DNA of 63,244 bases, filler included, from Atractiella rhizophila (GCA_021432655.1; 4 parts of 4 records of this genome joined end to end with filler, not necessarily neighbours in it), one strand, 5' to 3'. Shown: positions 25,305 to 48,160, numbered from the whole stretch's first letter. Translations and numbers: made by a program. The notes: generated from the sequence alone by a model not told the origin.

Positions 25305-25710
25305 ATAGGTGGCCTCGTCATCGGCTCTTTCATATTATTAGGTGTCAACAGGCGAAATGCCACGATCGATTCCAACACCGTCTCCATTCAGTCTGTCACC
25401 CTTTCATCTCTCCCTCCTGTAAGGCGACGAGTTGACTAGGGATGAATGGATAGGTGCGCATTCCCGGAACCAGCAGGGAGCAGGCTTTCTATCTCACATC
25501 TACGATTAGATGGGCAGCCAATGGAACGTTCCTGGAAACTCCCATGTCAGCTCCCACGAAGGCAAGTGGCAGGGCTCGGATCCCCTCAGTCTCAGTACCA
25601 CGGTCGATGTAACGTCAACATTCCACGCGGGAGACAAGCCTACTCCCAGCCACCCGACGATCGCGATATCACGATGTACAGTTTGTGTCACCACTACTTC
25701 CATCCGCGTA
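25305..25710 (+). pseudogene. 3'-half pseudogene copy of the MP88-like gene at 46829-48160
   Basis: Nucleotide similarity to the reverse complement of ~46880-47287 (ggtggcctcgtcatcggctct vs ggcggcctcgtcatcggttct; tggataggtgcgcattcccggaac vs tggataggtgtgcattcccggaac). In-frame stop (TAC GAT TAG vs TAC GAC GAG), indels, no 5' half. Confidence 0.85.
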
Positions 25711-25885
25711 AGCTAACCAGGGGGAACACAGGGTCGACACTCGTGACATGCTGCTTTAACAGACGAACTTGGACCATGCGCACTTTACTTTCATTGTTAT
25801 ACTGTTGATTACTTGCTATGTTCTCTCTGTTGAAAAAACGTGTAACTGCGTATTTCAATAACAGTGTGCGTCTACTGACCCATCA

Positions 25886-27872
25886 TTACAAACTCTTGTA
25901 CGCATTGTACATCACGCGCATCTTCTTCCTTGCGTCAGCGGAAACGTGATAACACAGGAGCTGGACCAGTAGCTGGAACGCTTCCGCCCTCTCAAACGGA
26001 TCTAGAATATTGAATTCCTTTCCCTGATACACCTCTCGGTAGTTGTCTCCCAAATCGGAGTTGGTAACCAACGCCGACAGGTATTTCCTGGTGAAAGTGG
26101 TCTTCACCAGGTGCATGAAACAACCGCGAAACGAAATCAACCACACCTGAGAAATATGTTAGGTGCTTCGGCTACTGAAATTGCCACACTCACCTCTTCC
26201 TCTGAAGCAAAGTCTGTGAAGTCGGTCAGGTCAATGTATTTATGATCACGCAAAGACTTCAAGGCCCTCCCGAGCATTTCCGCGTCTTGCTGAGGGAGCA
26301 TGCCGAAGGGGTTGTCTTTGTGTTTGACGGTTGTTTTCACCTGCATTTATCACTTCAGTTCAGACCGGGAAGATGAACTGAAGACGAACTTCAATCTGGA
26401 TGACTGGTTGACGTTCAGCAGCTGCAATCCGCCACTCCCTACCCTCAACTAAGACTGACATTTCCCCTAAGCCCTCCGTATCCCGCAGCGGACCGAAGGC
26501 TTCCTTTATCGAATCCACGTCCTGGACTTCTTCTTCCTCTTCATCTTCCTCCTTGATCGCTGAAGCGGATGAGGATGCTTTTGGATCGGAAGCTGGGGTC
26601 GTTGCTGGTTCGGACTCAAATTGCATGATCACGATTGCCCCATCGTTTCTGCACTGGTAAAGTTGAGCTGGTTTTTTTCCCTCTTTGCCCTTCGTTTGTC
26701 CACCCATCACCCAGGAAATTTGTTGGTGATGACGGCTACGAGAAATGAATGATGAAACCAAGACGCCAGAGAAGACAAGGAAAGGTAAGCACCACTCACC
26801 TCAGGCCTAACCAAACAAACTCCTTAGGTACCGTTTTCTTCCGAGTCCGCTTAGAGACACCACGACAGGCCTTCTTCTTCCAGGCTAAAGCATTCCCTTT
26901 CATCATTTTGTCTCCATGCCTAAGGCCGCACGCTCGGAGAGTAACGCCAAGCATTTCATACACGACATCCTCAACCACTGTTTCTTGCTCAACGGCAGGG
27001 CTGTACAGTTTCTGTTTCTCCTAAAGTGAAGCGGCAGGCAATTCAGCGATAGGTTTATGAACGAGACCTGAACTTACACGCTCAGGTCCCTCCCCTTCGC
27101 CTTCAGTGGACTGATCAGGCTCTTTTTCTGCCTCCTGCGATTGTGAACAAGAGGATGGGGTTTCACCCCCGGAAGCCGGAGACACAATATCGGAATCCTG
27201 ACTGCCGACATACTTAGTCTCAGGAATACGAAGGACTGTGCGTGTAGCGCAATTCAGAGCCGTCCTCAGTTGTCCCAGGTCGTGGTGCGACATGTCTTCA
27301 CTAGAGAGAGAAGCGAGGAGCTCTTTGTAAACTCAAACTAGCTATCAGCTTCTTTCTGTTCACAATAACTTAACGACTTACTGGGTGACTTCGTCACAGA
27401 ACGGAATTTGTCCGTTAATGGAATCATGCCTTTGAGATCGACGTTGCAGTTGGGTAGAACGCGTAGGGCTCGAAGGTTGTCCTTGTTCCAAAGACTTCCA
27501 CTTCGCACGATCCTTTCGTCCAGAACAATCTTGCCATATTTCGGATTTGAGTAAGCCTCAATCCATTTTTCGCGCCCCTCGTTGATTGCTGGCCATTGAT
27601 CTGAACAATACTTCAAAACAGCACTTCAGAGTGAAATACTCACCTTCGTCGCTACTTGCACCATCTTCATCCGATTCATTTGATTCTTTATACGGTTCTT
27701 CTCCCACTCTCCTTTTTTTGGCATCTGAGCCGCAACTTGTGAGCTTCCCGGAAATAGATGAAAGTTAAGTACCCCTAGGAGGTTGTTGGCGCAAGCGCTT
27801 GTTGCTTTCCGGCAATGGCTCAGTGCTGCCAGAAGAAGTATCTGCGGTTTGATCAGTTTCGGGTGATTTCAT
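25886..27872 (-). CDS. Orphan family A copy 1: putative PD-(D/E)xK-fold nuclease
   Basis: Spliced model MKSPETD...KKRR...RSGSLWNKDNLRALRVLP...EQETVVEDVVY...LYQCRNDGAIV...QPVIQIE|VK...MLPQQDAEMLG...VWLISFRG...EFNILDPFERAEAF...NAYKSL. Colinear with 44521-46576. One junction needs a GAG acceptor at 27334-27332. Confidence 0.7.
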
Positions 27873-31532: not shown

Positions 31533-33154
31533 ATGGGGTTATACGCAAGAAACCTTTTCCAACAACGCAAAGACAACATGAACTTACGGAATAGAAATCT
31601 ACTACGAACACGTACGGCATCTTCGTTGGGGGATTTTCCTCTACAGAGTGGATCTGGACGTCATGCTTCCGCGCATAACACTAGGCAAGGCAAAACAAGA
31701 CGCAACGCTACAAGAGACCCACTTTTTTCAATACGCCCCTTCAGCTCTCGAACTCGACTCCCTATTAGTTCCATTCATCGACATGAGCTGCTCGAGAACC
31801 CGTTCTATCGCAGATACATCTGTGACGCATCGACGCTGCCAACACTTACTGGACACAATCTCACGTCTCCAGGAGCGTACAAGTTCCAAGCAGATTTGTC
31901 AGATTGGAACGATGAACATGTCCTTGCTTGCCGCGTCGTCCCATTGACGGGATTGCCCATTCAGCGTGTCATCCCAGAGGAATACTTAGAGGACGTCTCA
32001 GGTAGGATACGGTTGACAATGCGGCACGGCTGACAGAACTTTAGAGCTTGAACAACGCCTCATTCTGGACTTCGAACGATTCTCCGTAGAGGAGCTGGAG
32101 TATGGTTGTGCTGAGGATATCCCTCGCACAAACTTGATGTCGAAACCGTTGCAATCACTGAGGCGTATTCTAGCAACTGACTCCATGGTCAATGTCGGGC
32201 ATGCCTGCTATCTCATTGAAAGAATTCTTTCACCGCTCTTGCAAAACTCTGTTTTGAATTTAGAAAACAAGAGATTCAGGTTTCGATTCGAGTAAGCGCT
32301 CCATGCAGAAAGACTATTATTGATCGTTGCTAGCACGAAACCGAGAGTAGAAAATAGCGCGACCTTGGGTGGTGAAACAAATTGGAAACTTTCCGCCTTA
32401 TCTTCATTGGTTTTTAAAGACGTGACGGACTCAGAATTGCATTTATTGGACTTGGGCGAGGAAGATATTCCAGTAGTTGGGTTTTACTTCCAGGTTACCT
32501 TTCCTTCAAAACCGTTTTATTTTTCCAACTAATGCGTCTTACCTCAGCACCGTAAAGCATTTGTTCCTGGGCCGCGTGAGGGAGATGGCTCGGGTTGGAG
32601 CCTATACGCTGATTCGGATGTCAGCTCTATCTGCTCCGATGTCAGCTCAGATGTCAGCTCTATTTTCTCAGCCTCCCCACCACCTCCACGACCGACAGAG
32701 TCCATACATCTGAGAGGGATCAACATTCCTAGTCCTTCTTCGTATGCTCAAGAGCTTGGCATGATGATAGTACACATCACAGCTAACAGCACATTTTACG
32801 GCGTTGGAGATTGCGAGGTGCGCATAGCTAGTGTTCTTTACGAGGTTACTGAGTGCTGTTGCTGTCTAGGCTTTTGTTATCGGCATGAACCACACACGGA
32901 TGCACATCTCCGCCGCTTTCTTCCCTTCAGAGCACATCCTCGAAGCGATGAAGAACCCGGTCCTCCCGACAGACTCACTAGTCTACTTTCTTCAGAGTGA
33001 GGAGTTTGACCTTGCGCTGCCAGAGGGAAGAAGGGACGGCCTAAGGGCGCTTATAGCACTATTCAAATATATGCTTTCCGGTGAAGTAAAGATTGGGAGA
33101 ATGAAGAAATTTGCCAAGGAATTGAAAGCTCGCCGTGCGGAGCTGAAGCGGTAG
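31533..33154 (+). CDS. Orphan family B copy 1: putative catalytically dead nuclease-fold paralog of family A
   Basis: Apparently intact 5-exon model: DLSDWNDEHVLACRVVP...TLGGETNWKLSALSSLVF...PVVGFYFQ|HRK...SYAQELGMM...E|AFVIGMNHTRMH...SEEFDLALPEGRRDGLRALIALFKY. Confidence 0.75.
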
Positions 33155-33402
33155 CACATGTTATTCTCCATATTGACCTGCCTCATCTCTTTTGTGTATA
33201 TTTATCTGTAACTGCTTATAAATGCACTGCGACAAATATTGTTGTGTTAATAAGAACAACGTTCGGAGCATAATTTGTTCGGTGGATATAACGTTGTCAT
33301 CATTGAAGATCACAGCACCTGCCAAGTGGGACCCTTATTCTTTGGTAACGCTATTGAAGAGTTTCCGGTTGGGCGTATCCTGCCCAATCAAACCATACGG
33401 CA

Positions 33403-34358
33403 ATGTCACCTCCCCCAGCGGCCAATCCTCCTGAACGCACTCCCTCCTTCCGCTTCCTACCTCCAGAGTCTCTCCCTTTACGGTCTCCAGCTCCCCCGCC
33501 TACAGCTCGATGGCTGCTCCCAAGACGCGGATTAGGAGGCTCAGGTTGGATGCATACGACTGTGCCTGCACAAGACGGTGCTTCAGAATCGGAAACAGAA
33601 TCTACTGACACAGCTATACCCCCTCAAACGTCAACGTCAGGCCGGGAAGTAATTCGAATTGAAGCACGAGCGTCGGGGGAGAGAGACAGAGGAAGGGAAA
33701 CAACGGAAGATGGCATGTCGCTTCTCTCCAGCGCGCGTGCCACACTTGCCAGTTTGGCGGCAGAAGAAGTCCCGAATATGAGTGCTAGTGAAGAAGAGAG
33801 CCTTGCAAGCATTAGAGAGCGTCAAGCGAGGACCATTGATGCGCATACTAGCGTGAGTTACTTCTCCGTTATACTAGGACTGGGATGGTTCTGGAAGGCT
33901 GCATCGGTGTGCAGTTGATATCTGCTCAACGCGAGACCTTGCGAGCAGCGGAGAGGACTATACATCTTCTCCAGGATCAGATACGGTTATACGAAGTCCG
34001 TTCACGCTTTACCGCCCGTCTTTCAAACTCCTCCACCTCATCATCCTCTCTCGCCGCCTCTTCTTCCAACGGCTCCCCACAACCTTCAACATCGGCCTCA
34101 ACTGCCACTGGACAATCCCCATCGCGGCACTTTCACTCCGCCCACAACGCGCTGAATACCCGCATCCGTGCTATCTCCCTTGATATCGCGCGGCAGCGGG
34201 ACGCGGCTAAAGACAGGGAGAAGGCAGGATACGGAGAAAGGAGAGGAGCAAGAGGACGTAGAAGAGGAGGAAGAACTGGTGATCATGCAAACTCGCTACA
34301 GCACTTGAGGACACTTAAACCAGCCCCTCGGAAGTGTAGTGCCAGCAATCCTAGCTGA
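33403..34358 (+). CDS. Hypothetical low-complexity/coiled-coil protein; structure uncertain
   Basis: Two overlapping long ORFs (33403-33918, 33885-34358) joinable through a GTGAGT...CAG intron. No family recognised. Confidence 0.35.
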
Positions 34359-34401
34359 GTCCTGCGCGTAGGAAAGAGTTTGAGGAGGAACGACAGCTAG
34401 G

Positions 34402-35720
34402 ATGTATGAGCAAGGATATGGCAAGTCTCGAGCGATAGCATACCAATCACACCGTTGTCGTGCTCTTCTCCCTAACTCTTTGGCAGTTCCCGAGTCTACG
34501 TTATAATCAACAAAGTGTCGTGTTCTCGAGTGAGTAGCTTTGGGTCAAATGTTTCTCGAGTTTCACCACGGTAAACCCAGTGATTTACGCCTCTGGCTTT
34601 GGCGTGTTTGCTCTCTATGCTCTTGTGACCTACTTCAGGGTCTACGCTCAACCTCTTCACCATTCGAAGCCGCCATTCGAGGTTCCAAAGGCTGTTCTAG
34701 AGAGATCTGTGGTGGGTTACTACCCGAGTGTCAGGAAATGTCATATCTGATGATTATTCACTAGATATATGAATCATCGGACCTGGAAGGTACACCCGCA
34801 AAGTGCTTCCAAGGGTCTTGCGGAGGAGCTTGGAAACCCCTGAGATCGAGACACTGTAAGGATTGTGGATTGTGCAAGTGTGTCTTTACTTCCTTATGTA
34901 TGGCATTGCGATTTAAGCAACTTCAGGTCTACATTTGATCATCATTGTCCATGTTGAGTTTCTAACCAGTATTCTTCATTTCCCTTACTAATGATCCCGT
35001 AGGTTTGACTCCTGCATTACGTTAGAGCTGACGATGAAGCCCTTCCTTCAATTTGTTACGATTGTCCCGCTGCTTCTTACCTGGGCATTAATCCCGCTTG
35101 TTTGGCCAATTGGCAAACACCTGTCGCTTGTAAGCTTGAGCTTTTGATAAATAGTTACGCTGATTCGACGGGAAAGATTGTGCGAACTGTGTGGCTTGAT
35201 AGCAATAACCAATGGATGAAGGACCATTGGTGGAGCCTGAGGAGGTCTTGGATCGGTGGACCTGGATGGAGGTAAGCCTTTGGCCCATCGTTGATGTCTC
35301 ATCAACACCGCATTTAGATGGATGGGCGGCTTATACTATTCCTTCAAATATGCCACATTAGACGCTGCGTCCTCACGAAATCGGGTTGCGTGTCCCTCAT
35401 TTTCAGCCTTCTTCCTGGTCTTCTTCGCGACGATCACTTTGTCCTTGTCCACCGCCATGCTCTACTCCGTAATTTGGCAACTTGAATGCGGAATAACGAG
35501 TGTGGAGTACGAGCGTACGAAGCTTTGGAGAAGATTTCAAACAAAGGGGGAGAAGGGCTATGACCCCCGAATGAAACTTTGGGTTCCTTTCGGGGAAGGA
35601 CAGGGTTGCGTGATGCTAGTCTCGCCTTCTCAAGACCTATACAACCGCGGAGTCCATAGAAATTGGAGAAGTGTGATGGGAGTCACTTGGAGAGATTGGC
35701 TTTCAGGAACTCCTAGGTAA
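34402..35720 (+). CDS. DHHC palmitoyltransferase; start approximate
   Basis: WKPLRSRHCKDCGLCK|STFDHHCPW|FDSCI, TM segments, GITSVEY (TTxE-like), LYNRGVHRNWRSVMG. One donor appears non-canonical (see findings). Confidence 0.75.
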
Positions 35721-36026
35721 GCCGCCACTATGTTCCTTCACACCTTCAGACGTTCATCAATACTCTACCCATAGTGAGGAGGTCGGTAAGCTGGCACAAG
35801 TGAATGAGAAATGGCAGCAGATTCTGCTTGAGATGGCTCGGAAGCAGTGTGGCATAGATGAACATAAAGAATCGCAACACGCTTAACTGTTTCCGCTGAT
35901 GCAGAGAGCCTGCTCAACAAGATCGAGCTGGGACCGAGCATATGCTTTACATACAGATACAAACCAAGGAATAAAGATACATCACTCCTACAACGAAGGA
36001 ACTCAAGCATGCGTAATTAGAAAAGT

Positions 36027-38217
36027 TCACTTCTTGCGTTTTGGAGGAGGAACCGATACTGCACTCATTGGCGGTCGTTTAACGCTCGTCATCCTGCAGA
36101 TCATCAGCTTCATGACCTTGATGTTCAGAGTGCATACCACTGGAAAAAATCACAGCGAAACTCCGGATTCACGTCTTTGATATCCTGTCCCGTGTCGTAT
36201 CCTTTCCCCACTGGTCGAGCACATTGCCAAAACTACAACCCGAAGTCAGCAGACCGTATCTGTGGGCGAGTGGAACATCAACTTTACGGCCCTTGTTAGG
36301 ACCAGTTTTGTTGACGGTCCACATCTTGCAGGGCTCATCGTGACCTGTACAGTTCGGAACTACCGGAGGAGCAAAGATATTAGACCAAGCGGTTCGCGTG
36401 TCCTCCTGGGCGACTCGGATTTCTTCCAACAATTCAGGTGGAAATTCTTCTTCTTTCATTTCGAGCGGTGCGGATGTAGAAGTGGAAGCAGCAGGAGACT
36501 CTAGTCCAGATGATTTACGTCTTTTCGGTCTAGACCGTTCTTGCTCTTCGTTTTCGAAAGACGAACGTCGTTTCAGACACTGCTCCTCCTTTTCTTTGCT
36601 CTTCGTTGCAGGTGTGGTAAAGAAATTGGCGAGAGTTGGCTGAACAGAAGACTTGTTCTTTTTCTTCTTCGAGTTAGTGGACGAGGAGCGTTCGGCTTCG
36701 GAGGTCGATTTTCTCTTCTTGGAAGAAGACCGTTCCTTCACAGGCGACGATGCTGCACCGGCAGAGGAGACGGTAATCATGGATGATTCCTGAGAGAGAG
36801 CTGAGGATGTACCGTTGTCAACGGCTGAGGAAGAGACATCTGTTGATGAGGGAGGTCTACTGTTTGCCGCCTCCGGAGCTAGTGAAGACTCCGCCTTCTT
36901 GTTGAAGAAGGTGGTTAATGTGCCTTGTTTGAACTCTTGGTAAAATTTTGCCGCAAGTGGGGGAGGTTCAACTTCCTGGTCCTTGGCTCTACTAGGATTG
37001 AGTTGGTCCCACAACCTGAACGTTTGTCCATCGACCTGGATTTCCTCCCGAAATGTCGCTACGACAGGGCAATGATCGCTACCTTTTATGTTGGGTAGGA
37101 TATCACAACCATCGATCCAAGGAAGAAGACCATGAGTGACAAGGATATAGTCAATTCGAGTGCCATAGTTTGAAGCTCGCGCATCAATCTTCGTGTTCCA
37201 GCAGGTAAACATCTTCTCTCGGTCTGGATGGAACTTCCTGCAGATGTCGATGAGAATCCCGTTCTCGTTGATAAGATTGTCGAGCCATCGACGAGACGGG
37301 TGCCAATACCAGTCTGTGATTCCGTGCTCCTTCATCCTCCCTTCAGGATCGCAATGATCTAGCGGACGATGACAGATATTCATGTCCCCAACAACGACAA
37401 CCTCCCTCCCTGCCTTCATTAAACCTCTAACTCTAGATTCCAACATAGATTCGTATCGATTCTTGTATTCCAGTCGGTCATCATTCGTCTCGTTCGGGCA
37501 GTAAAGGTTGATGAGAACAAACAGGGACAGATCAACCATCGTGCAGCGGCCTTCACAGTCCAATTCGAGGATCTCATTGAAAGTTAAATCAAGAGACTCT
37601 AATGAAGGATGAGGGAGGATTTTAGATGAGTCGGAAAGAGCGGCAACGGTCTTTAGTCGGCCAGAAAGACCCTCTTCAGCCTTCACGGGAACGACGGTCG
37701 ACTTCTTCGTGTAGATTCCAGTGCCGGAGTAACCCTTAACTGGGACGCGCTGCACAAAGGCATAAATCAGTTACAGTATTATTAGCTGTGTAATGACCAT
37801 GATTAACCGAATAGAAGGAATAAAAGCAATCGAACTCGTTCATGATGCACATATTCCGCTCGACTTGCTTTCGTGTCATTTTCGTTTCTACCACCACATT
37901 CTACGGCACCCTTCGCATCATTAAGAGAGGACGCACCTTGTACACACACAATGTCTGCATCCATGTTGGCAATTATCCCTTCATAAGAGCTGTTTGGTTT
38001 GAAGTACTCTGACCAACTGGTACCGGCTTTCACTCAGCTTATTTCGCGCTATCAAAGAGAGCACTTGCGGGTGATAGTAAGGAAGTGTTTTGAGTCCGTT
38101 CTAGGTACCACTTCAGTCCAGACAGACGGTTCGTGTTTGCTTACGATATTCCATGTCTAACCGCGACAATAGGTCATGACTGTCAGCTGTGAACTGAGTA
38201 CTCACCATTAGCTTCAT
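36027..38217 (-). CDS. APN2: AP endonuclease 2 (ExoIII family with C-terminal GRF zinc finger)
   Basis: MKLM|TWNI|NGLKTL, ADIVCVQ, KGYSG, LINLYCP, VVGDMN, TCWNTK, GTRIDYIL, GSDHCPV, PIP-like QGTLTTFF, CTGHDEPC...GPNKGR...FRCDFFQW. Confidence 0.93.
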
Positions 38218-38837
38218 CCCAGCCGTGTTGGCCCAATAGTTGCTTAGTAGCTGTGGAGCTCTGAAGTCTTAAAAGACCTAGCGCGGCGGTCCAAGCTGTT
38301 GATAGTGGTCGTTTGACTCTGCCGGAGTGGCAACACCAGAACGCGAGAGTGGAATCTCGATCAACGCTCAACATAGAATGAGCGAACGACGGAGGGAGCA
38401 AGCATATCAACAAGACAACAAAGGATTGGATGCTATTATAGGGAGCTAGGACATTGCACAATCTCATTTACGACTTCCAGGTAAGCGCAGGATATTCCAC
38501 TGTTGTAAATGGGTGGGAGCACATTGAGCGGTTTAGAACAATGACAAGGTTGTTGAATCTATTTCGGACTAGAGCAATTCCTCTACAAGCATTGTTCCGC
38601 GCACTGAATTCAGGACTTGTTATCTGTAATGGATGAATCTACCTTATTCTAGCACATGTAATCCGGAGGAAGTAGGTGCAATGAAGTAGATGTGCCGCCT
38701 TGATTACATGTGGAGGATATGGAGCCTCTACCGGTGTCAACATCTACGCTACTTCGATTTTCTCAAAATCTATACAAACCTCTCCCCTTTCTCAATGTTT
38801 TGGATGTGCTCATTCGTTCTAAGGCAAACACAATATC

Positions 38838-39923
38838 ATGCTCCTCGTTTTAACTCACCCTCTCGCTTTGTCCACCTCCTATGTTGCATCCCTCTATCTC
38901 TTCAAACCGCGTCAACAACCATCTTCAGATGCACCGGTTCACCTGCCGCGAGACAATCCCGCTGTGATCCGAGCTCGCCTAACAGGACTTTCACTCTCCA
39001 CAATCGCGTCTTTCGGACTACTTGCTCTTCGTTATCACCGCTCTGGACTCTCGATACTCGGGTGGAGAGGGTTGTTTGATCTCCTTGGCTTACAAGTCGA
39101 CCGTCAAGCCATCAAAGCAAGTATCGTTGGAGTGGGGTTGACAGCATCCCTTTTTGCCGGGCCTCTTTTTGTTGAGTTTTTGGATCGAAAACTCCCAGGA
39201 CAGAAGTGGTTCAGCTTGAAGCGTTGCTGGGGAGATGTAACGAGTTGGATCGGGCTGCGGAACTGGGTCTTTGTATGGGTTTATTGCTTCTGCTAGTCCA
39301 CGGAGCTGAACTGAGTCAAGGCACCGTTGACGGAGGAGCTGATTTTCCGCTCTTTCACGTTCGCTTCCGAGTTCATTATGACCAACGGAATGGTAGACTG
39401 GAAATGGCTTGTATTCTTTACACCCGTTTATTTTGGAGTTGCTCATGCACATCATATTTGGGAGTCCTATGTGCAAAGTGGGAGGACAAGGGATGGACTG
39501 ATCAGAGGAAGCATCCAAGCTGGTATGTCTTTCCCTTGTATTGGTAATTCTACAACTAATTTGTCAAAGCTTTTCAATTCTCCTACACTACACTCTTCGG
39601 ATGGTACTCGAGCTATCTCTTTTTCCGAACAGGTGTGCTTCTCCGATCTAGCACTAGCACAACCTGACTAGCGACAGGTTCTGTTTATCCTTCCATCTTC
39701 GCCCACACCTTCTGCAATATGATGGGCTTCCCAACTTTGGGATACGATCTTGATCGCTATCCGGAGAAGAAACAATGTCTGTCCCCCCTCTCACACAGGG
39801 CTATCGTTAATCAAAGTCATAGCCATTATCTGCTCTTACATCGCCGGTATCGTTGCTTTCACGGCTGGTATGGTCAGATTTGTGCATACGAGGGAATTCG
39901 TTTATTGGCCAGCGCTCCTTTGA
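38838..39923 (+). CDS. RCE1: CAAX prenyl protease 2
   Basis: YVASLY, RDNPAVIRARL, LFAGPL, LRNWVF, TEELIFR, FGVAHAHH, FGWY, HTFCNMMGFP. Confidence 0.92.
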
Positions 39924-40049
39924 TCTGTTTCAGTCGTGGATTCAATTCACTTCAAGCGGTTTTTGTTACAGTTTGTTTACAACGCAGCGGTACATCTGAT
40001 AATATAAAAACAAAAAATGAGGCAGCTCAAAATGGAGAACAACACTGTG

Positions 40050-41523
40050 CTACCGCATCAGCTCCGCATGGCGAGCTTTCAATTCCTTTGCAAATTTCTT
40101 CATTCTCTCGATATTCGCTTCATCTGAAAGCACATATTTAAGTAGTGCTATAAGTGCCTTCAGGCCGTCCCTTCTCCCCTCCGACAGCCCAAGATCATAT
40201 TCCTCACTCTGACGAAAGTAGACCAGCGAATCAGTAGGAACCACTAGATTTTCATCGCTTTCACGACGTGCTTGGAAGGGAAGAGAGCAGCAGAGATGTG
40301 CATCCCAGCGCGATTCATGCCGATAACAAAAGCCTAGATAGCAACTCAGCACTCATAATGAATGCTTACCTCACAACTTCCAACGCCATAAACTTTACTG
40401 TTACTTGTGGCGTGCGCTATCATCATGCCAAGCTCTTGAGCGTACGAAGGAGGGCTGGGGATGTTGATCCCTCGCAGGTGTGTGTGGAGGCGACGCCGAC
40501 AAAATAGGGCTGACATCTAGATCGTCCGGATGCCGATCTAGGTACGCGCGTTTCTCTTTATTCTCCCTTTGCCAGTGCAGGCTCGATAACAAGTCTTCTC
40601 CCCATGCCGTCCTTGTACAAATGCTTTACGATGCCAAGTTAAAGGTCATTAGTGGAAGTAACACGGTCTTTTATGGGTGGTGACCTGGAAGTACAATCCA
40701 ACTGGAATGCCATCTTCCTTGTCCAACTCATACTCCGTCAAGTCTCCGTCACGTCTTTAAATATCAGTGAAGAACAGACGAAAGTTTCCGGCTCGTTTGA
40801 CCCCCAAGGTCACGCTATCTTCTAATCTGGATTTCGTGCTAGCCAGGATCAGTCCATTCTGCGTGTATTAACACTCACTCCTACCGAAGTTTGAATATCT
40901 TGTTCTTGACCGCTAAAGAACCGGTTTGCGTCAAATACTGGGCATGAGCCACATCGACCATTGAGGCGCGATCCGCCTCAGTGATTGCAATGGGCTAGCC
41001 ATCAAGTTTGCGTTAGGGATATCTTGCTCATAGCCATTCTCTAGGTCTTCTACAGAGAAATGCTCGAACTCGAGAATGAGGTATTGTTCAAGCTCTAAAA
41101 GTTCTGTCAGCAAGACTACGTCTACACTCGTTCCTGTCCTACCCTACCTGAAACATCGTCAAAGTATTCCCTTGAGATGACGTGCTGTATGGGCTGTCAA
41201 TGGGACAACACGGCAAGTTAGAATGTGTTCATCGCTCCAACATGAGGAAACCACTTGGAATTTCTTCACTGCGGGTGGGGTGACATTGCATGTAAGAGTG
41301 GGAAGCGCTGATACGTTACAGATGTCGTCTTTGGTTGGAACAAAGAGAAAGTCGAGTTCGAGAGATGAAACGGCGAAGTGGGGACAATTGGTGCGCGCGC
41401 TTTCCGCGTCGTATTTTGCGCTTAGCGATCTTCCGCATAGAACCATGGGATCCGCGCAGTGGGAACCTGGGCTGCTGACTAGTAAATGTGGATGTGCGTC
41501 GTAGTTTCTATTTGTAAGATCAT
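40050..41523 (-). pseudogene. Orphan family B copy 2, pseudogene (closest to copy 1)
   Basis: Homologous blocks (WSDEHILTCRVVPLT; LEQYLILEFEHFSVEDLE; PTDSLVYFRQSEEYDL..EGRRDGLKALIAL..FAKELKARHAEL) broken by frameshifts and stops (e.g. just after the ATG and at KAMKI*). Confidence 0.8.
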
Positions 41524-42432
41524 CTTAACGTAATGTTCTTGCTAGGAAGTTACGATGGGTTTTGCTGCGGCATCGCACGAAAACGAAAACAGCAGGAGAA
41601 TTTAAGAAAATCTGACCTGAGCGTAAGAGCGTTGAGGACACCAAGTTGCTAAAGTATGCGCTAGTAGGAAGAGAAGTCACAAGGGAACGGGGACCAGTTC
41701 TCGCCTTTATGACCAGGAACATGAATGAGACCACTGTCGATGTCGACTACTTATAAGTGAGATGGCGGTGAGGATAACAAGCCCTGGAAGCCGGGAAGAA
41801 GGCCAGGCGCTAGCTTTGATTACATTGCCAGCTATATTGCATTTCGCTGCGTCGCCAGGGGAACCAATGAAAGAAAAAATGAACAAGAGTGAGGAAGAAG
41901 GTCGACTTACAACTGTACTCGAATTTTACAGCCTGAGCGTATTTCACCAGTTGACATGTTTGTGGGGTAACAGTGACCAAATTCATGTTTCATTGATAGA
42001 TTAAATATAGTAGATCAAAGTTTGCAATTGTTTTACATCGTTTTCGTTCTTTTGTGAGTATTAAATTATGTTGCGCCCACCTGTGTCGAATTCTGCTCCA
42101 TTCTCTTGTGGAGACACTCATATATTGCAATGACCAATGACGAAAATATCATGATGTAGAGAGAAAAGCCATGTGGGTATTTATTTATTCTTGTTTTTGT
42201 TTGGAAACTTTGTCGATTCCTGTGAATAAGACGTGGACAAAGCACGATTGGCTTCAAGTTGGATCAAACGTGTTCGGATGCGCTCCTGCCCTTCAAATGA
42301 GCTGTAATTTACTCCGGTTCTGGCAGGTAATCTAGTTATAACATGCTTTTATGTTATTCAAAACTGTCTGCGACAGCACAATGAAGTATAAACGGAGAAA
42401 GACGAAGCACCTCGAATAGAAAGCCGCATTTG

Positions 42433-44083
42433 CTACTGTTTCTGTTCTTCATGACGAGATTTCAATTCCTTCACAAATTTCTTCATCCTCCCAATCTTCG
42501 CTTCACCTGAAAGCACATATTTGAACAGTGCTATCAGTGCCTTCAGGCCGTCCGTTCTTCCCTCTGGCAGTGCAAGGTCAAACTCTTCACTCTGAAGAAA
42601 ATACACCAGCGAGTCTGTTGGGAGGACGGCATTCTTCATGGCTTCTAGGATGTGTTCTGAAGGGAAGAAAGCGGAGGAGATGTGCATTCGTGTGTGATTC
42701 ATGCCTATAACGAATGCCTTGACGGGGTTCAGTGACTATACATCCACAAGCCCGAACAAACTGACCTCATGATCAGCAACTCCGTAGGCTTTACTATTAG
42801 CGGTAAGCTGCGCTAACATCATGCCTAGCTCTTGCGCATGTGAAGGAGGGCTTGGAACATCCTTTCCCTTCAAATGTAGAGACTCTGATGGCCGAGGGGG
42901 AGGTGTTGGCGTAGATACGATGGAACTGACATCCGATTCAGGATGCTGGCGCTGATACTCGCGTTTCTCCTCATTCTCTTCATGTGCATAACGACAGTCT
43001 GCCTTCTCTTCCGACCAGCGCCGCCCTTCAGCAAAGGACTGAGCATGCTAAGAAAGGATTATTACTCTGATTTTTGCGACATAAATGCTCTTGCCTGAAA
43101 ATAGAATCCAACCACAGGAACACGCTCTTCTTTATCGACGAAGGCAGTATGATATTCGGTCACGTCTCGAAATATAATGGATGAGTAGAGGGTCAATTTC
43201 CAATTGGTGTTGCCTCCGAGAGTAACGCTGCTTTCGACATGTTCCTTGGTGCTGCTTGAAATGTCAATTGTGGGTTTGTCGACTAAACCACTCACCAGAA
43301 ACAAAGTTTTAGCCTTTTCTCTCCTATCTGCAGCTTTGAGTCGTCAAAGAGACCCCAAGTAATTTCATCCATCAGAGTTTGCGCCAGCCGCACCCCAGAC
43401 ATCCACTCGCTCCTTAATATCGATCTCAGAGTCAACAATGGAGCGACCATCAAGCTGCCCATCGGAATAGATGCTTCAGAGCCATATTCCAGATCTTCCA
43501 GAGAAGGTCGTTCAAAATCTTGAATGATTCGGTTCTCGAATTCTGAACATGAGTGCTTTAGCCAGTTTCTCTTCTTGTTATAGAGCGCACCTGTCAGATG
43601 ATCAAAGTATTCTCCAGGAATCACATGTCGTATCGGCAGCGCTGTTAATGGGACAACTCTGCAGGCAAGGATGTGATCATTGGTCCATTCCGATAGATCA
43701 GCCCGAAACGATTGAGGTGTGGAGAAACTCGAATTTCGCCCTGTGAAAGATGGCAAAGATTGTGAATCCGAAGTGTATCGTTTGTAGAACGTGTTTCTTA
43801 AAAGTTCTTCTTCAATAATGAGATGGACTGGCATTCTTGTTCTTGTAGACAACTGGCGAATGGAAGTTGGCTGAGGTATCGGTACTGGGTCTTTGAGCCG
43901 CCATTTTCGCTTTCCAACCGTACGGGTGGTAGAGCGAGAGATGCCGAGCGGCAAATTCTGCTCTTGGGGGTAACGAGGTGTGGAAATGCGCTTTGGGACC
44001 AATTTCCTGCTCCGTAACTGCATATTTTCTTCTCGTTCGCGTCGAATTCTTTCGGTAGATATCTCATGTCGTGTTTGAACCAT
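42433..44083 (-). CDS. Orphan family B copy 3: putative catalytically dead nuclease-fold paralog
   Basis: DLSEWTNDHILACRVVP...TLGGNTNWKLTLYSSIIF...PVVGFYFQ|HAQ...SHAQELGMM...AFVIGMNHTRMH...SEEFDLALPEGRTDGLKALIALFKY. Third intron is GC-AG (donor ~43094). Confidence 0.75.
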
Positions 44084-44520
44084 GTGAGGTCTGCATTGAA
44101 GCTACTGTAAAAGTAAAAACGGCAAAAAAGACACCATACGCGGTATGAGAAATGTGCAGTATTCGGCAGATGATCCCAATGTCAAGCACAATTACTTCCA
44201 GGAGTGGAGAGGGCGATCACGTGAGCAAGATACAACAACATAGGGTACGTAATCGGCCTTCCAGGCAATCAAAACTTTGCACTTTATCTCATGTCCAAAT
44301 AAATCACGACTCCACCTTGTAGTGTTGCCAATAGGCACGCATTTTCATGTCTTGCCTTGTCAACTTCTGACCTTCTAGCTAGGCTGGGCTTAGGACAAAC
44401 AAATCATAAAAGCGTTTTCAATACGGATCTTGATTTCTTTGAAGTTGGAGGAAATGCGAAGTGCGACTATAAATGAGCATTAAGAGCGTTGCTTCAATTC
44501 TGTCAGTGTTTAAGTCTCAA

Positions 44521-46576
44521 ATGGCATCGGAATCTCAAGCTGCAGAAGGATTTATCGACAGTAGCACAGAGCTCATCAAAGGTACGAAGAAACGTACTCG
44601 TAACCAGGTTCAAAATGGTAAGCCTTCACCAGATTGAATAGAATTAGGAGGCGTGATACCATGAAAATCGCTCGCAGAACCAAAAAAGAAGAAAGAGGAC
44701 GCGGACCGTTCTGACTCTAGTGGGTCGGAAACAGAAGTAGATTCTGAAGGAGACCCAGGTGTGTCTGTACCTTCTACCCGCACGGTGATCATACAAACAT
44801 TTCGGACAGGTAATAACAATGCCGCTGAAACCACCTACAAGCCATGGCCAGAGATCAAGGCTGGTCCCGATTCTTGGGTCAGCGCGTACAAAGAAGCAGA
44901 TCGAAAAAAGGTCCTCCTCAACAAGCGTGTCGTTCGGAGCGGCAGTAAGTGGAATGAGGAGAATCTTCAAGCGCTGCACGTCATTCCACACTGTGACGAG
45001 GATATCGCCACGATGATCCCAGATTCCACTGAGTTTGACGAGGTTGAAGAGTCGAGATGTTAGTATCATGCCATCGCAATCAGAGTGAAATACTGACTGT
45101 GATGTAGTGTTTGAGGAGATTTTATCAGCGGTGACGGAAGAGCACTCATCGAGTACCTACCTGAGAGACTTTCAAAACGCCTTGAGTTTTGCTACGCGTA
45201 AAGGCTTCCGTATTCCTGCCGTACACTACGACAAATCTCGACCTCCAGCTCAGGATCCCGAGCTGGAGTCCGAGCCAAGCACCCAAGGTTCTCCCCCTCC
45301 TTTTTCGGAAGGAGAAAGGGAAGAGACTTCACTTCTCGCAGTTCTCGAAGTGGACGTGGACGTGGAAAAGCCACCTGTTCTGGAACAGAAGAAAGTAGTC
45401 TTGGACTCCTCACCGTCGGCGCGAGCTAGCTCGTCTACCAAACCGGCCAAGAAGATCACCCAAGTTAAGGTTGCAGAGCAGGAAACCTCGTACGAGGAGG
45501 TCGCATACGCGTTCATTCGCCTTGCCTTGATATCATGTGGAGCTGTGCCGGGTGAAGAAGCGACGAAGAAGAACATCTTAGCTTGGCCTAATCGGAGGAC
45601 ACGGGAGAAGAGAAAGGTGAAGAGATCGTCGAAAGGGGCAGGACGACCCGTGGGAACCAAAAATTCCGAAGAATTCGTTTGGCTAGGATTAAGGTAGGTT
45701 GCATCCCATATCTGAGGTGCAGCAGCTGATGGCAGCCTAAATCACCACAGCCGACATCGTCAGGTCACTAATTGGGTGATGGGTGGCCGAACGAAGGGTG
45801 GTGCTGGCAGACCAGACCAACTGTATGTGTCGAGGACGGATGGGGCTATTGTTGTCATGCTGCTTGCGCCGGAGGAGACTTCAAAGGCTCAACCAGGCCC
45901 ACTTATTCCGAAATCCGACGAGGCTCAAGCTGAAGCTGAAACGGAGAACAGCAAGGAAATCAGCGTCAAAGATGCACTTGAACCTTTAAGAGACGCGACT
46001 CCAGAGGAAAAGGTCGTTCACCATCAAGGCAAGGAACGGTTGATAGTGGCTGCAGAGTCGCAGCCTGTCATTCAAATCGAAGTACGTCCTCACGTGCCTT
46101 GTACTTTAGCTAATAGTTCGACAGACAAAAACGAGTAAACATACTCCGTATCAGATGCTGCCCCAACAAGATGCAGAACTGATCGCCAGGGCACTGAAGC
46201 CATTGAAGGACCAGAAATACATCGATTTGAGCAAGTGCACCGACTTTTATCCCCAAGACGAAGTGAGTGGCACGTCAAGCGTCTTCTCCAAAACCTAAGT
46301 TGATTTCCTTTTCAGGCTTGGCTGATTTCGTTTCGAGGTTTACACATGCACTTCGTGAAGACTATCTTCACGGCTGACTATCTCGCTGCTCTGGTCAGAA
46401 AGCAAGACCTTGGAGATCTCTATCGAGACGACTACCAGAGCAAAGAGTTAGATATTCTAGACCCTGAGAAGCGCGCTGATGCTTTCTATTATTTAACCAA
46501 GCTTCTTTGTTATCACAGGTCCTCCAAAGCGAGACAGAACATGCGCGTACTTCACAATGCCTATAAGAGCCTGTAA
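44521..46576 (+). CDS. Orphan family A copy 2: putative PD-(D/E)xK-fold nuclease
   Basis: MASESQ...KKKK...RSGSKWNEENLQALHVIP...EQETSYEEVAY...LYVSRTDGAIV...QPVIQIE|TK...MLPQQDAELIA...AWLISFRG...ELDILDPEKRADAF...NAYKSL; canonical introns. Confidence 0.78.
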
Positions 46577-46828: not shown

Positions 46829-48160
46829 TTACTCCTCAGCAAAGGGGCTGGGGTCGATCCTATATTCCCTCTTCTTAGGATAAGCGGATCCAGCGATGGA
46901 AGTTGTCGTGGTGCAGCTGTACGTCTTAGTGGTCGGATGGGCAGCAGGAGTGGTCTTGTCACCCTGGTGGAAGGTTGACGTTCCATAAACACCGGGAGTG
47001 AGAGGATCAGAACCCTGGCACTTGTCGAAGTATCCAACGTCGTAGTTTCCGGGATCGTTCCATTCGCTGCCCATCTCGTCGTAGATGTGAGGGCAGTAAG
47101 CCTTCTCCCTGCCAGTTCCGGGAATGCACACCTATCCATGAATCCCTTGTCAGCTTAACAGCACAAAACTAGACATGAGGTGGGTGGACAAACGCGAATG
47201 GAAAGCGTGTTGTAATCGATGAACTCGTGCCATTCCGCATATTGGACTTTCTTGCCTTTAAGAGAACCGATGACGAGGCCGCCTATTCCACATGGTAAGA
47301 CACATCAAGGTGGCATCAGACCTGTCGAAAAGAGCGGAGTAAAGGAAGGAAGAAAGGTGGACAGACCAATGGGATTGCCCTTGCCGCTGGGACCATGAGG
47401 ATCAAGCTCTCCTCCCTCGTCGCCCTTCAACACGTTGACTTTGGTGAAGTCGCCGGTACAGGTGATTTGGAGGAATGACTTGGTTTGCAACCAGTGGCAT
47501 CTATTTGAAAGAGATAGTGTTAGAGGAGACGGCTGATACTGGGAGGAAAAGCACGACATACCCTTTCAAAGTCCCGGCAGGAATGAGCCTCGCACCGTGA
47601 CCTATTCAGTCGAATCTTTATCAGGGATGTACTGTCACATTCAAAGCACGAACCAGGTTTAGTGCACCAAGCTACCTGTTCACAAATCACTCATTTAAGC
47701 CTTCGTTCCGACTAAAAGGTAAGCAAGGAAGACGCACAACAGTCTCTTCGACGTCGCCGATTGTCTTACCCTTGCTCTGAGGAGCGAACATGCCTGTCGC
47801 GACCCCAATCAGCTTGAGCGATGGGGGATGGGAAGAGAAGGCACGGACACCAATCGTCGATGCTGTATATCCAGGCAGTTTGACACTTGCTATCAGACAG
47901 CAGAACGCTTCAGTAACTTGCCGAAGAGGAGTATACCAGAAACAGACCTGGAAGCGCTGTCAACAGTCCCACAGTCGTTGTACCCGCTTTGTCCCTTCCC
48001 ACCAGGAATCATCAGTCCCCCTTGCTCCATGGAAACACCGCCTGAAACTCACTTCTTCGCTCTGATGAGGAAGATTGTTGGGGTCGACAATTGCACCGGC
48101 TTTGACGAAGTTGAGCAGTGTGCCCACGAGAGCAACGGTTAGAAGGGTGGATTTGAACAT
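46829..48160 (-). CDS. Secreted Cys-containing glycoprotein, MP88/'macrophage-activating glycoprotein'-like
   Basis: Signal peptide MFKSTLLTVALVGTLLNFVKA; VAWCTKP, ARLIPAGTLKG, GDEGGELDPHG..GNPIGGLV, YCPHIYDEMGSEWNDPGNY. Family assignment is from memory of these motifs. Confidence 0.75.

Follow-up and report, generated by a model that had tools for sequence, protein, structure and literature searches.

A putative pseudonuclease family of Atractiella rhizophila that is related to a nuclease-like protein family and lacks its conserved (D/E)xK motif

What is the function of a gene family that resembles a putative nuclease, is kept intact, and lacks the motif on which catalysis would depend? The question is raised by a stretch of DNA from the fungus Atractiella rhizophila (GCA_021432655.1; 63,244 nucleotides (nt), filler included, in which four parts of four records of the genome are joined end to end; we call this whole stretch the window), in which motif look-up and tblastn found five loci of two gene families: A1 and A2 (family A), and B1, B2 and B3 (family B). 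An earlier note on this DNA had proposed that family B is homologous to family A, shares four intron positions with it, has lost its catalytic residues and is a conserved pseudonuclease; the peptide blocks that it quoted are all found in the sequence where it implied. Our favoured reading, to which we give a probability of roughly one half, is that B is a non-catalytic pseudonuclease paralogue of a nuclease-like A. In this reading the fold is inferred, and so are an active A, an inactive B and any partnership of the two.

Family A is represented in the window by A2 (44473–46576, + strand), an intact gene of 596 codons with exons at 44473–44617, 44678–44758, 44810–45058, 45108–45693, 45751–46081, 46125–46262 and 46316–46576, and by A1 (25886–27625, − strand), whose 5' end is undefined and whose spliced model contains exactly the database protein P0004 (241 amino acids (aa), equal to the last three exons of the model). 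Three other database proteins belong to the family: P0001, a further A protein of the same species (its exon 4 and that of A2 share 82% identity), and the distant members P0005 (610 aa) and P0006 (279 aa). All five A proteins compared (A1, A2, P0001, P0005 and P0006) have in common a helix bearing a conserved Glu, the turn W-x-M-G, Asp-Gly, Glu-x-Lys (ExK) and a Gln-x-x-Ala-Glu helix; the Asp, the ExK and the Gln are kept even in P0005 and P0006, and the proteins are otherwise 23–36% identical in their C-terminal half. The distance from Glu to Gln is 14 residues in four out of five proteins, and Asp and ExK are 26–29 residues apart in the compact members, the Atractiella genes carrying an acidic insert of about 55 residues there. 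The motif codons are at 26642–26644 (Asp), 26390–26392 (Glu) and 26335–26337 (Lys) of the − strand in A1, and at 45839–45841 (Asp), 46079–46081 (Glu), 46128–46130 (Lys) and 46164–46166 (Gln) of the + strand in A2. Strands of A were assigned from the secondary-structure order of low-confidence AlphaFold models only.

Parts of a published account of the HsdR/RecB nucleases describe a Q-containing helix directly after motif III, with a QxxxY motif (PMC2475608). Because the order and spacing of the A motifs are those of the HsdR/RecB-type PD-(D/E)XK layout, A is probably a Mg-dependent DNA phosphodiesterase. We consider it fairly probable that A works like an HsdR-type nuclease, which is a likeness and not a demonstrated membership of that group. 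Besides the motifs, a nuclease fold is suggested by leads from the ESM Atlas, searched with P0006 and B3 (the Atlas's own models, with a predicted local distance difference test (pLDDT) of 0.60 and 0.63). The named neighbours were alike for both queries, namely clusters bearing HSDR_N, PDDEXK_12, PDCD9/mL37, DUF7924 and kinase domains; for example, B3 aligns to an HSDR_N-bearing cluster over 205 of 212 aa, with a template modelling score (TM) by row of 0.75. We treat these neighbours as leads only.

Family B has two intact genes in the window: B1 (31533–33154, + strand; exons 31533–32001, 32045–32291, 32334–32493, 32548–32817 and 32870–33154), with 476 codons from the first ATG and no internal stop, and B3 (42433–44083, − strand; exons 43591–44083, 43296–43542, 43095–43251, 42766–43047 and 42433–42717), whose model contains letter for letter the NCBI protein P0002 of A. 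rhizophila (BT69DRAFT_1354866). A third B protein, P0003 (NCBI), encoded elsewhere in the same species, is 93–98% identical to most B1 exons with the same splice pattern, and is one of a B1-like cluster of three sequences. From the GG motif to the helix Gln, none of the three B proteins (B1, B3 and P0003) has a conserved [DE]-x-K, whereas ExK is kept in all five A proteins. B1 and P0003 have no [DE]-x-K at all in this interval, and B3 has two, which lie inside a non-conserved charged insert. To this extent the proposed loss of catalytic residues stands; the replacement of Asp by Ser that formed part of it is doubtful, and an alternative site with His-x-Lys/Arg exists.

Which B residues correspond to the A motif depends on the anchors chosen, because the central region has no significant A–B alignment, and the mapping is ambiguous among three anchorings. 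The candidate positions fall at 32401–32715 (+) in B1, and none of them gives (D/E)xK. Mapping (a), that of the earlier note, sets the Asp opposite Ser (32401–32403 in B1) and E|xK (the bar marking the intron) opposite Q|H-(R/A), the intron-anchored counterpart (Gln-His-Arg, 32491–32493/32548–32553 (+) in B1); it is supported by the phase-0 intron after the Glu/Gln codon, by the hydrophobic and perfectly conserved strand PVVGFYFQH and by spacings like those of P0006. Mapping (b) uses the same strand 3 without a gap from the GG motif, with the A Asp opposite D in B1 (32428–32430) or E in B3, P0003 and B2, and with matching hydrophobic patterns. Mapping (c), returned by MAFFT in two modes and by global hhalign, sets S-(I/L)-H-L-(K/R) opposite I-E-x-K, 14 residues before the helix Gln (His-Leu-Arg, 32707–32715 (+) in B1, the length-collinear counterpart). 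Its spacings are 19, 75 and 14 in B versus 18–19, 80–84 and 14–17 in Atractiella A, and no large indel is needed; the strand is polar, and the introns no longer match under this mapping. In all three mappings B is without the acidic residue of (D/E)xK, the position of the Lys is occupied by R/A or R/K and that of the Asp by Ser or D/E, and most probably B cannot do canonical PD-(D/E)XK chemistry. The central blocks that the earlier note had aligned (VMGG/TLGG, D→S, E→Q and QQDAE/AQELG) are not confirmed in that form: they give no significant local match, and the MAFFT and global hhalign alignments disagree on them.

A number of results weigh against the view that B is the inactive paralogue of a nuclease. 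The helix motif of A is QxxxE, with Glu at Q+4, and not the QxxxY of RecB/HsdR, and Q+4 of B is Met. Pfam gave nothing above chance for 12 exon translations and the whole proteins P0001–P0003, P0005 and P0006 (the sub-threshold chance rows being DBC1, Pox_D2, UBA_DHX29, LPD7 and DUF1684), NCBIfam and PADLOC gave no family for A or B, and sequence searches of the PDB with P0001, P0003, P0006 and the A profile gave no match below an expect value (E) of 0.27. AlphaFold2 models from shallow alignments were unusable (P0001 with seven further rows, pLDDT 36; P0003 with six further rows, pLDDT 30), and a Foldseek search of the PDB with the A model (pLDDT 36) reached E 0.26 at best and a TM by query of at most 0.10, with nothing at E ≤ 0.001. 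The feature scores of the named Atlas families (0.76–0.79) are below the naming bar of the tool, with a TM by query of 0.37–0.48. Within the A–B comparison, hhalign finds no significant local alignment in the central region, where MAFFT and global hhalign align differently; B is 20–26% identical to every A protein over the C-terminal 105 columns, the value for P0005 versus P0006 being 23%; and in mapping (c) B has an acidic residue, His and Lys/Arg at the three positions, so an activity with altered residues is conceivable.

The alternative that survives best, although we think it unlikely, is that A and B are homologous and neither is a nuclease. The D...ExK...Q pattern would then mark, at the structural level, an unrelated and uncharacterised fold or function (such as a binding module that resembles the N-terminal extensions seen in fungal kinase-family proteins), and B would be no more than a divergent paralogue. 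This would agree with the absence of sequence-level matches to curated families or solved structures, with the best Atlas neighbours of both proteins (0.95–0.96), which are unnamed 'hypothetical protein' clusters from fungi and molluscs, and with the presence of non-nucleases (PDCD9/mL37, DUF7924 and the kinase-bearing clusters) among the named ones. It has to contend with the helix Glu, Asp, ExK and Gln kept in all five A proteins in an order and spacing of the HsdR/RecB type, as far as parts of the source describe it (PMC2475608), and with the HSDR_N and PDDEXK_12 clusters, which recur for both Atlas queries by features and by structure.

We regard it as rather improbable that B is still an enzyme with a shifted or altered site, made up of the acidic residue in 'DVT(D/E)' and a His-x-Lys/Arg 14 residues before the helix Gln. 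This is what mapping (c) would mean, with spacings that mirror those of Atractiella A; the H-x-K/R block differs little between B1 and B3, and a review describes 'migrated' catalytic residues for some pseudoenzymes (PMC10211241). However, opposite the Lys stands Arg in B1 and P0003 but Lys in B3, and opposite the Asp there is a switch between D and E in paralogues that are 94% identical; catalytic residues do not usually vary in this way. The candidate strand comes after a Pro-rich tract and is polar, and the AlphaFold model, of low confidence, predicts none at this place but does predict one at VVGFYFQH. With this alignment the introns at the site no longer match.

Are A and B related at all? 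By BLASTP their similarity is weak (best for the C-termini of A2 and B3, E 1.35e-4; N-terminal block, E 0.007–0.019). We compared profiles of the five A proteins and the three B proteins with hhalign. The top match is the last exon, the best-conserved block of the two families (B1 32870–33151, +; B3 42436–42717, −), with a score of about 50.5, E 9.5e-6 and a probability of 83%. The second match, collinear with the first, is an N-terminal block with the pattern S-x-W-N/T ... A-x-R/H-V-x-P (B1 31896–31943, +; B3 43649–43696, −; A2 44938–44988, +; A1 27452–27502, −), with a score of 31.4, E 0.004 and a probability of 8%. Both scores are higher than the top scores of 82 column-shuffled B alignments (mean 16.0, standard deviation 2.8, maximum 23.4), a control that is somewhat lenient as column shuffling also removes local composition.

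Gene structure gives a second line of evidence. B1 and B3 have four introns each, of phases 1, 2, 0 and 0, and all four phases equal those of the last four shared introns of A (A1 has five introns, of phases 1, 0, 2, 0 and 0; A2 has six, of phases 1, 1, 1, 2, 0 and 0). In three intron-blind MAFFT alignments, the last intron is at the identical column and phase in A1, A2, B1 and B3, and the phase-2 intron of B is one column off that of A. The phase-1 intron is 3–17 columns off (A1 and A2 themselves differ by 3–5 columns there), and the 'E|xK' intron is 76 columns apart in A and B and coincides only under the alignment of the earlier note. The claim of four shared introns is thus correct for the phases and, as to the sites, for the last intron and nearly so for the phase-2 intron. 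According to a rough estimate, a random intron would fall within four codons of one of six A introns and have the same phase with a chance of ∼0.04, and three of four introns would do so with a chance of ∼1e-4. Since two collinear blocks score above 82 out of 82 shuffles, the intron phases agree in four out of four cases and the positions agree within one column in two out of four, A and B very probably share ancestry, and the claimed homology is upheld.

That the resemblance is due to chance between two unrelated orphan families is very improbable: the BLASTP values (E 1e-4 to 0.02) come from a two-sequence search space and the hhalign probabilities are 83% and 8%, but the two collinear blocks beat every shuffle, four introns agree in order and phase (one in the same column and one a column off), and the A-like P0006 and B3 (P0002) have the same set of named Atlas neighbours. 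As to what happened to the motif, we infer its loss in B from its presence in all A lineages. The direction and timing of this loss stay conditional, because B is as distant from Atractiella A as P0005 is from P0006 and the unrooted tree is uninformative.

B1 and B3 are under purifying selection, as had been suggested from the high similarity of their C-terminal exons. By the Nei–Gojobori method, the proportions of synonymous (pS) and nonsynonymous (pN) differences between B1 and B3 are 0.73 and 0.30, and the ratio of nonsynonymous to synonymous substitution rates (dN/dS) is 0.15 overall, the synonymous sites being saturated. Over the last 150 codons the synonymous rate (dS) is 0.7–1.7 and dN/dS is ∼0.10 (0.095 in the last 73 codons), far from the value near 1 that would speak against selection, and the last exons are indeed highly similar (protein 87% identical; DNA 85.5% identical across 297 nt). 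The lower dS in the last exon could be due to an old gene conversion; dN/dS is low regardless. That the B genes are functionless, decaying relics of A-like genes holds for B2, which is a pseudogene, and would suit the tiny size of the family (P0002 and P0003 only, among 3980 candidates), but for B1 and B3 it is refuted by the low dN/dS, the frames being intact after synonymous saturation, and B3 having a piece of an RNA-type contig that ends at an exon boundary.

B2 (∼40053–41465, − strand), in tandem with B3, is a dead, decayed family B pseudogene: when it is compared with B1 and B3 by tblastn, three frame changes and many in-frame stops are found, and its DNA is 80% identical to B1 across ∼500 nt.

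Evidence on transcription comes mainly from contigs of run X4, which we took as RNA-derived because they are spliced; runs X1–X3 gave only one, six and two short contigs, respectively. For A2, all six introns are seen as GT..AG joints in X4 contigs, including the 51-nt intron 44759–44809 (+), which is in frame and leaves the open reading frame (ORF) open, so that it is hidden in the ORF alone. For B3, a 1462-nt X4 contig has a piece that ends exactly at 43591, the boundary of exon 1 and intron 1, among the joints listed. In the joints listed, transcripts thus cover all introns of A2 and, for family B, this one boundary of B3. The NCBI models P0002 and P0003 employ the same splice sites as our models of B3 and B1. 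For example, intron 3 of B3 (43048–43094, −) is a GC-AG intron (GCAAGA...TAG; B1 has GTTACC there), and the P0002 model splices it identically. A1 has an extra phase-0 intron (27021–27077) that removes an in-frame stop and is predicted only.

Other contigs map to the B genes. X4 contigs on B1 (32076–33115, +) have at least nine substitutions relative to the window and probably derive from a 94%-identical paralogue of the P0003 type; because of these differences, expression of B1 is not separable from that of the paralogue. Contigs of 151 nt from two soil metatranscriptome runs (X2 and X3) match B3 at 42909–43059, 43219–43369 and 43885–44158 with zero differences. Two of these contigs continue unspliced into an intron or across one and are uninformative on splicing; to judge by this, the contigs resemble DNA or pre-mRNA, from this strain or one very close to it.

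How widespread are the two families? A HMMER search with P0001 against 1.84 billion representatives gave only four proteins at E ≤ 0.001, namely P0001 itself, P0004, P0005 and P0006, and the relatives of family B were only P0002 and P0003 among the 3980 candidates. Pattern scans of metagenomes gave 592 stretches for B (patterns from P0002 and P0003) and 233 for A (from P0001 and P0004), none of which was confirmed by tblastn. Family B has so far been found in A. rhizophila only, and both families seem almost confined to that species, which has three or more genes of each family plus one dead B. The search with the exon 4 protein of A2, all introns of which are joined in RNA-type contigs, gave the 82% identical paralogue yet no identical protein, and A2 may be absent from the public annotation. 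No publication on these genes was found among the papers listed for the A. rhizophila genome; the supplementary gene-family tables of the genome paper could mention the clusters.

Under our favoured reading, A would be a Mg-dependent nuclear DNA phosphodiesterase, the predicted nuclear location resting on N-terminal K/R-rich tracts read by eye. B retains the N-terminal block and the GG turn, as well as the helix Gln and the C-terminal domain half, but no conserved (D/E)xK; it would be a non-catalytic 'pseudonuclease' whose fold is kept for binding nucleic acid or an A-type partner. The idea of a conserved pseudonuclease thus agrees with the selection on B1 and B3, the RNA-type contig of B3 and the missing motif; it goes too far in that A is only a putative nuclease and B2 is dead. 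A partnership of A and B would be attractive given the head-to-head arrangement of B3 and A2. These divergent genes are separated, according to the models, by a spacer of 389 bp (44084–44472), which may be a shared promoter region, and the genes may be co-regulated. In the XPF-MUS81 family (ERCC1, EME1) and among the subunits of the tRNA-splicing endonuclease, an inactive paralogue with a restriction-endonuclease-like fold is the obligate partner of an active one, and we have such heterodimers of nuclease and pseudonuclease in mind; among PD-(D/E)XK proteins, an active and an inactive paralogue frequently act together as a heterodimer. The likeness does not extend to sequence, as these pairs have no sequence relation to A/B, and of the two B genes that are intact in the window, just one adjoins an A gene. 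A complex prediction for P0001 and P0002 made without alignments scored 0.00 against a mark of 0.34, which speaks neither for nor against binding.

Among known systems, the N-terminal domain of HsdR and the RecB PD-(D/E)XK domain (HSDR_N, PF04313) come closest to A. Like them, A has the order helix-Glu, Asp, Glu-x-Lys and Gln in the next helix, and of the named Atlas clusters, those with HSDR_N are some of the closest to both P0006 and B3 (TM by row 0.59–0.75; leads only). On the other hand, neither A nor B matches the Pfam model or PDB chains by sequence, A has QxxxE, B is without a conserved (D/E)xK, and A, a eukaryotic protein that stands alone, carries long disordered inserts and lacks a helicase motor. 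PDDEXK_12 (PF20516) and DUF7924 (PF25545) are fungal, of similar size and Atlas neighbours of both queries (features 0.76–0.78, TM by row 0.50–0.64), but by hmmscan no A or B protein matches either family, even with the limit relaxed to E ≤ 10, and the scores are under the naming bar.

Two further systems of fungi are of interest. Parts of the account of the SPOK spore killers of Podospora describe a fungal PD-(D/E)XK nuclease domain that HHpred matches best to HsdR and in which the catalytic Lys is needed for killing (PMC6660238). The Atlas neighbours of B3 include clusters with Kdo/RIO-type kinases, a SPOK-like partner domain (a lead only), but A and B are without a kinase domain, coiled coil or Cys cluster; they are likened here by description. 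Ssd1 and its relatives are fungal RNase II-family pseudonucleases, i.e. inactive nuclease paralogues that are kept by selection as binding proteins, as far as the portions of two sources go (PMC8097288, PMC8934651). B would be like Ssd1 in this respect and unlike it in fold (RNase II versus PD-(D/E)XK-like) and in distribution, the Ssd1 family being ancient and widespread and B found in one species.

The window is a gene-dense segment of a fungal chromosome, with ∼48% guanine plus cytosine and short GT-AG introns. Around and between the A and B genes are what we take, by eye from the ORFs, to be housekeeping genes (a tryptophan-synthesis fusion, a WD40 protein, a CAAX protease-like protein and an armadillo-repeat protein). 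An origin of the A and B copies by transposition was considered and rejected: self-BLASTN finds gene copies and one 110-nt block only, terminal repeats are absent, and the copies are separated by housekeeping genes. This block belongs to a third duplicated gene, which lies tail to tail with each A gene (25430–25716, +, and 46829–47155, −). The copies share the block of ∼110 nt with 85% identity, far above that of A1 versus A2, and differ at codon-like spacing; they are small Thr-rich ORFs with the common motif M-G-S-x-W-N-x-P-G-N ... Q-G-S-D-P-L, for which Pfam gives no family. A and the third gene look like a duplicated two-gene unit. Between B1 and B2 (36169–37770, −) there is an unrelated gene with the Pfam domains Exo_endo_phos and GRF zinc finger, spliced in X4 contigs. 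A Ser/Ala-rich low-complexity gene (∼33358–34460) is matched at 34223–34440 (+) by an X4 contig with ∼20 substitutions and a dozen small indels; the contig could come from another allele or a paralogue, or the assembly could be at fault.

In a more speculative view, which we consider improbable, A and B together would be a two-component module new to fungi, in which A, an HsdR-like stand-alone nuclease, is tamed or targeted by its dead paralogue B, either as an obligate heterodimer like MUS81-EME1 or as a poison–antidote pair related to SPOK. This would fit because of the head-to-head arrangement of B3 and A2, the turnover of copy number and the near-absence outside one species, as of a selfish or conflict-driven element.

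What does this mean for the two families? The five loci, unannotated so far, now have a working annotation, every database relative being named 'hypothetical protein'. As to method, where sequence statistics alone leave a remote homology marginal, it can be backed by introns conserved in phase and position. Pseudonuclease paralogues are an already known phenomenon, and family B is tiny. If A is an HsdR-like nuclease, A and B would be a eukaryotic, lineage-restricted pair of nuclease and pseudonuclease in the PD-(D/E)XK world.

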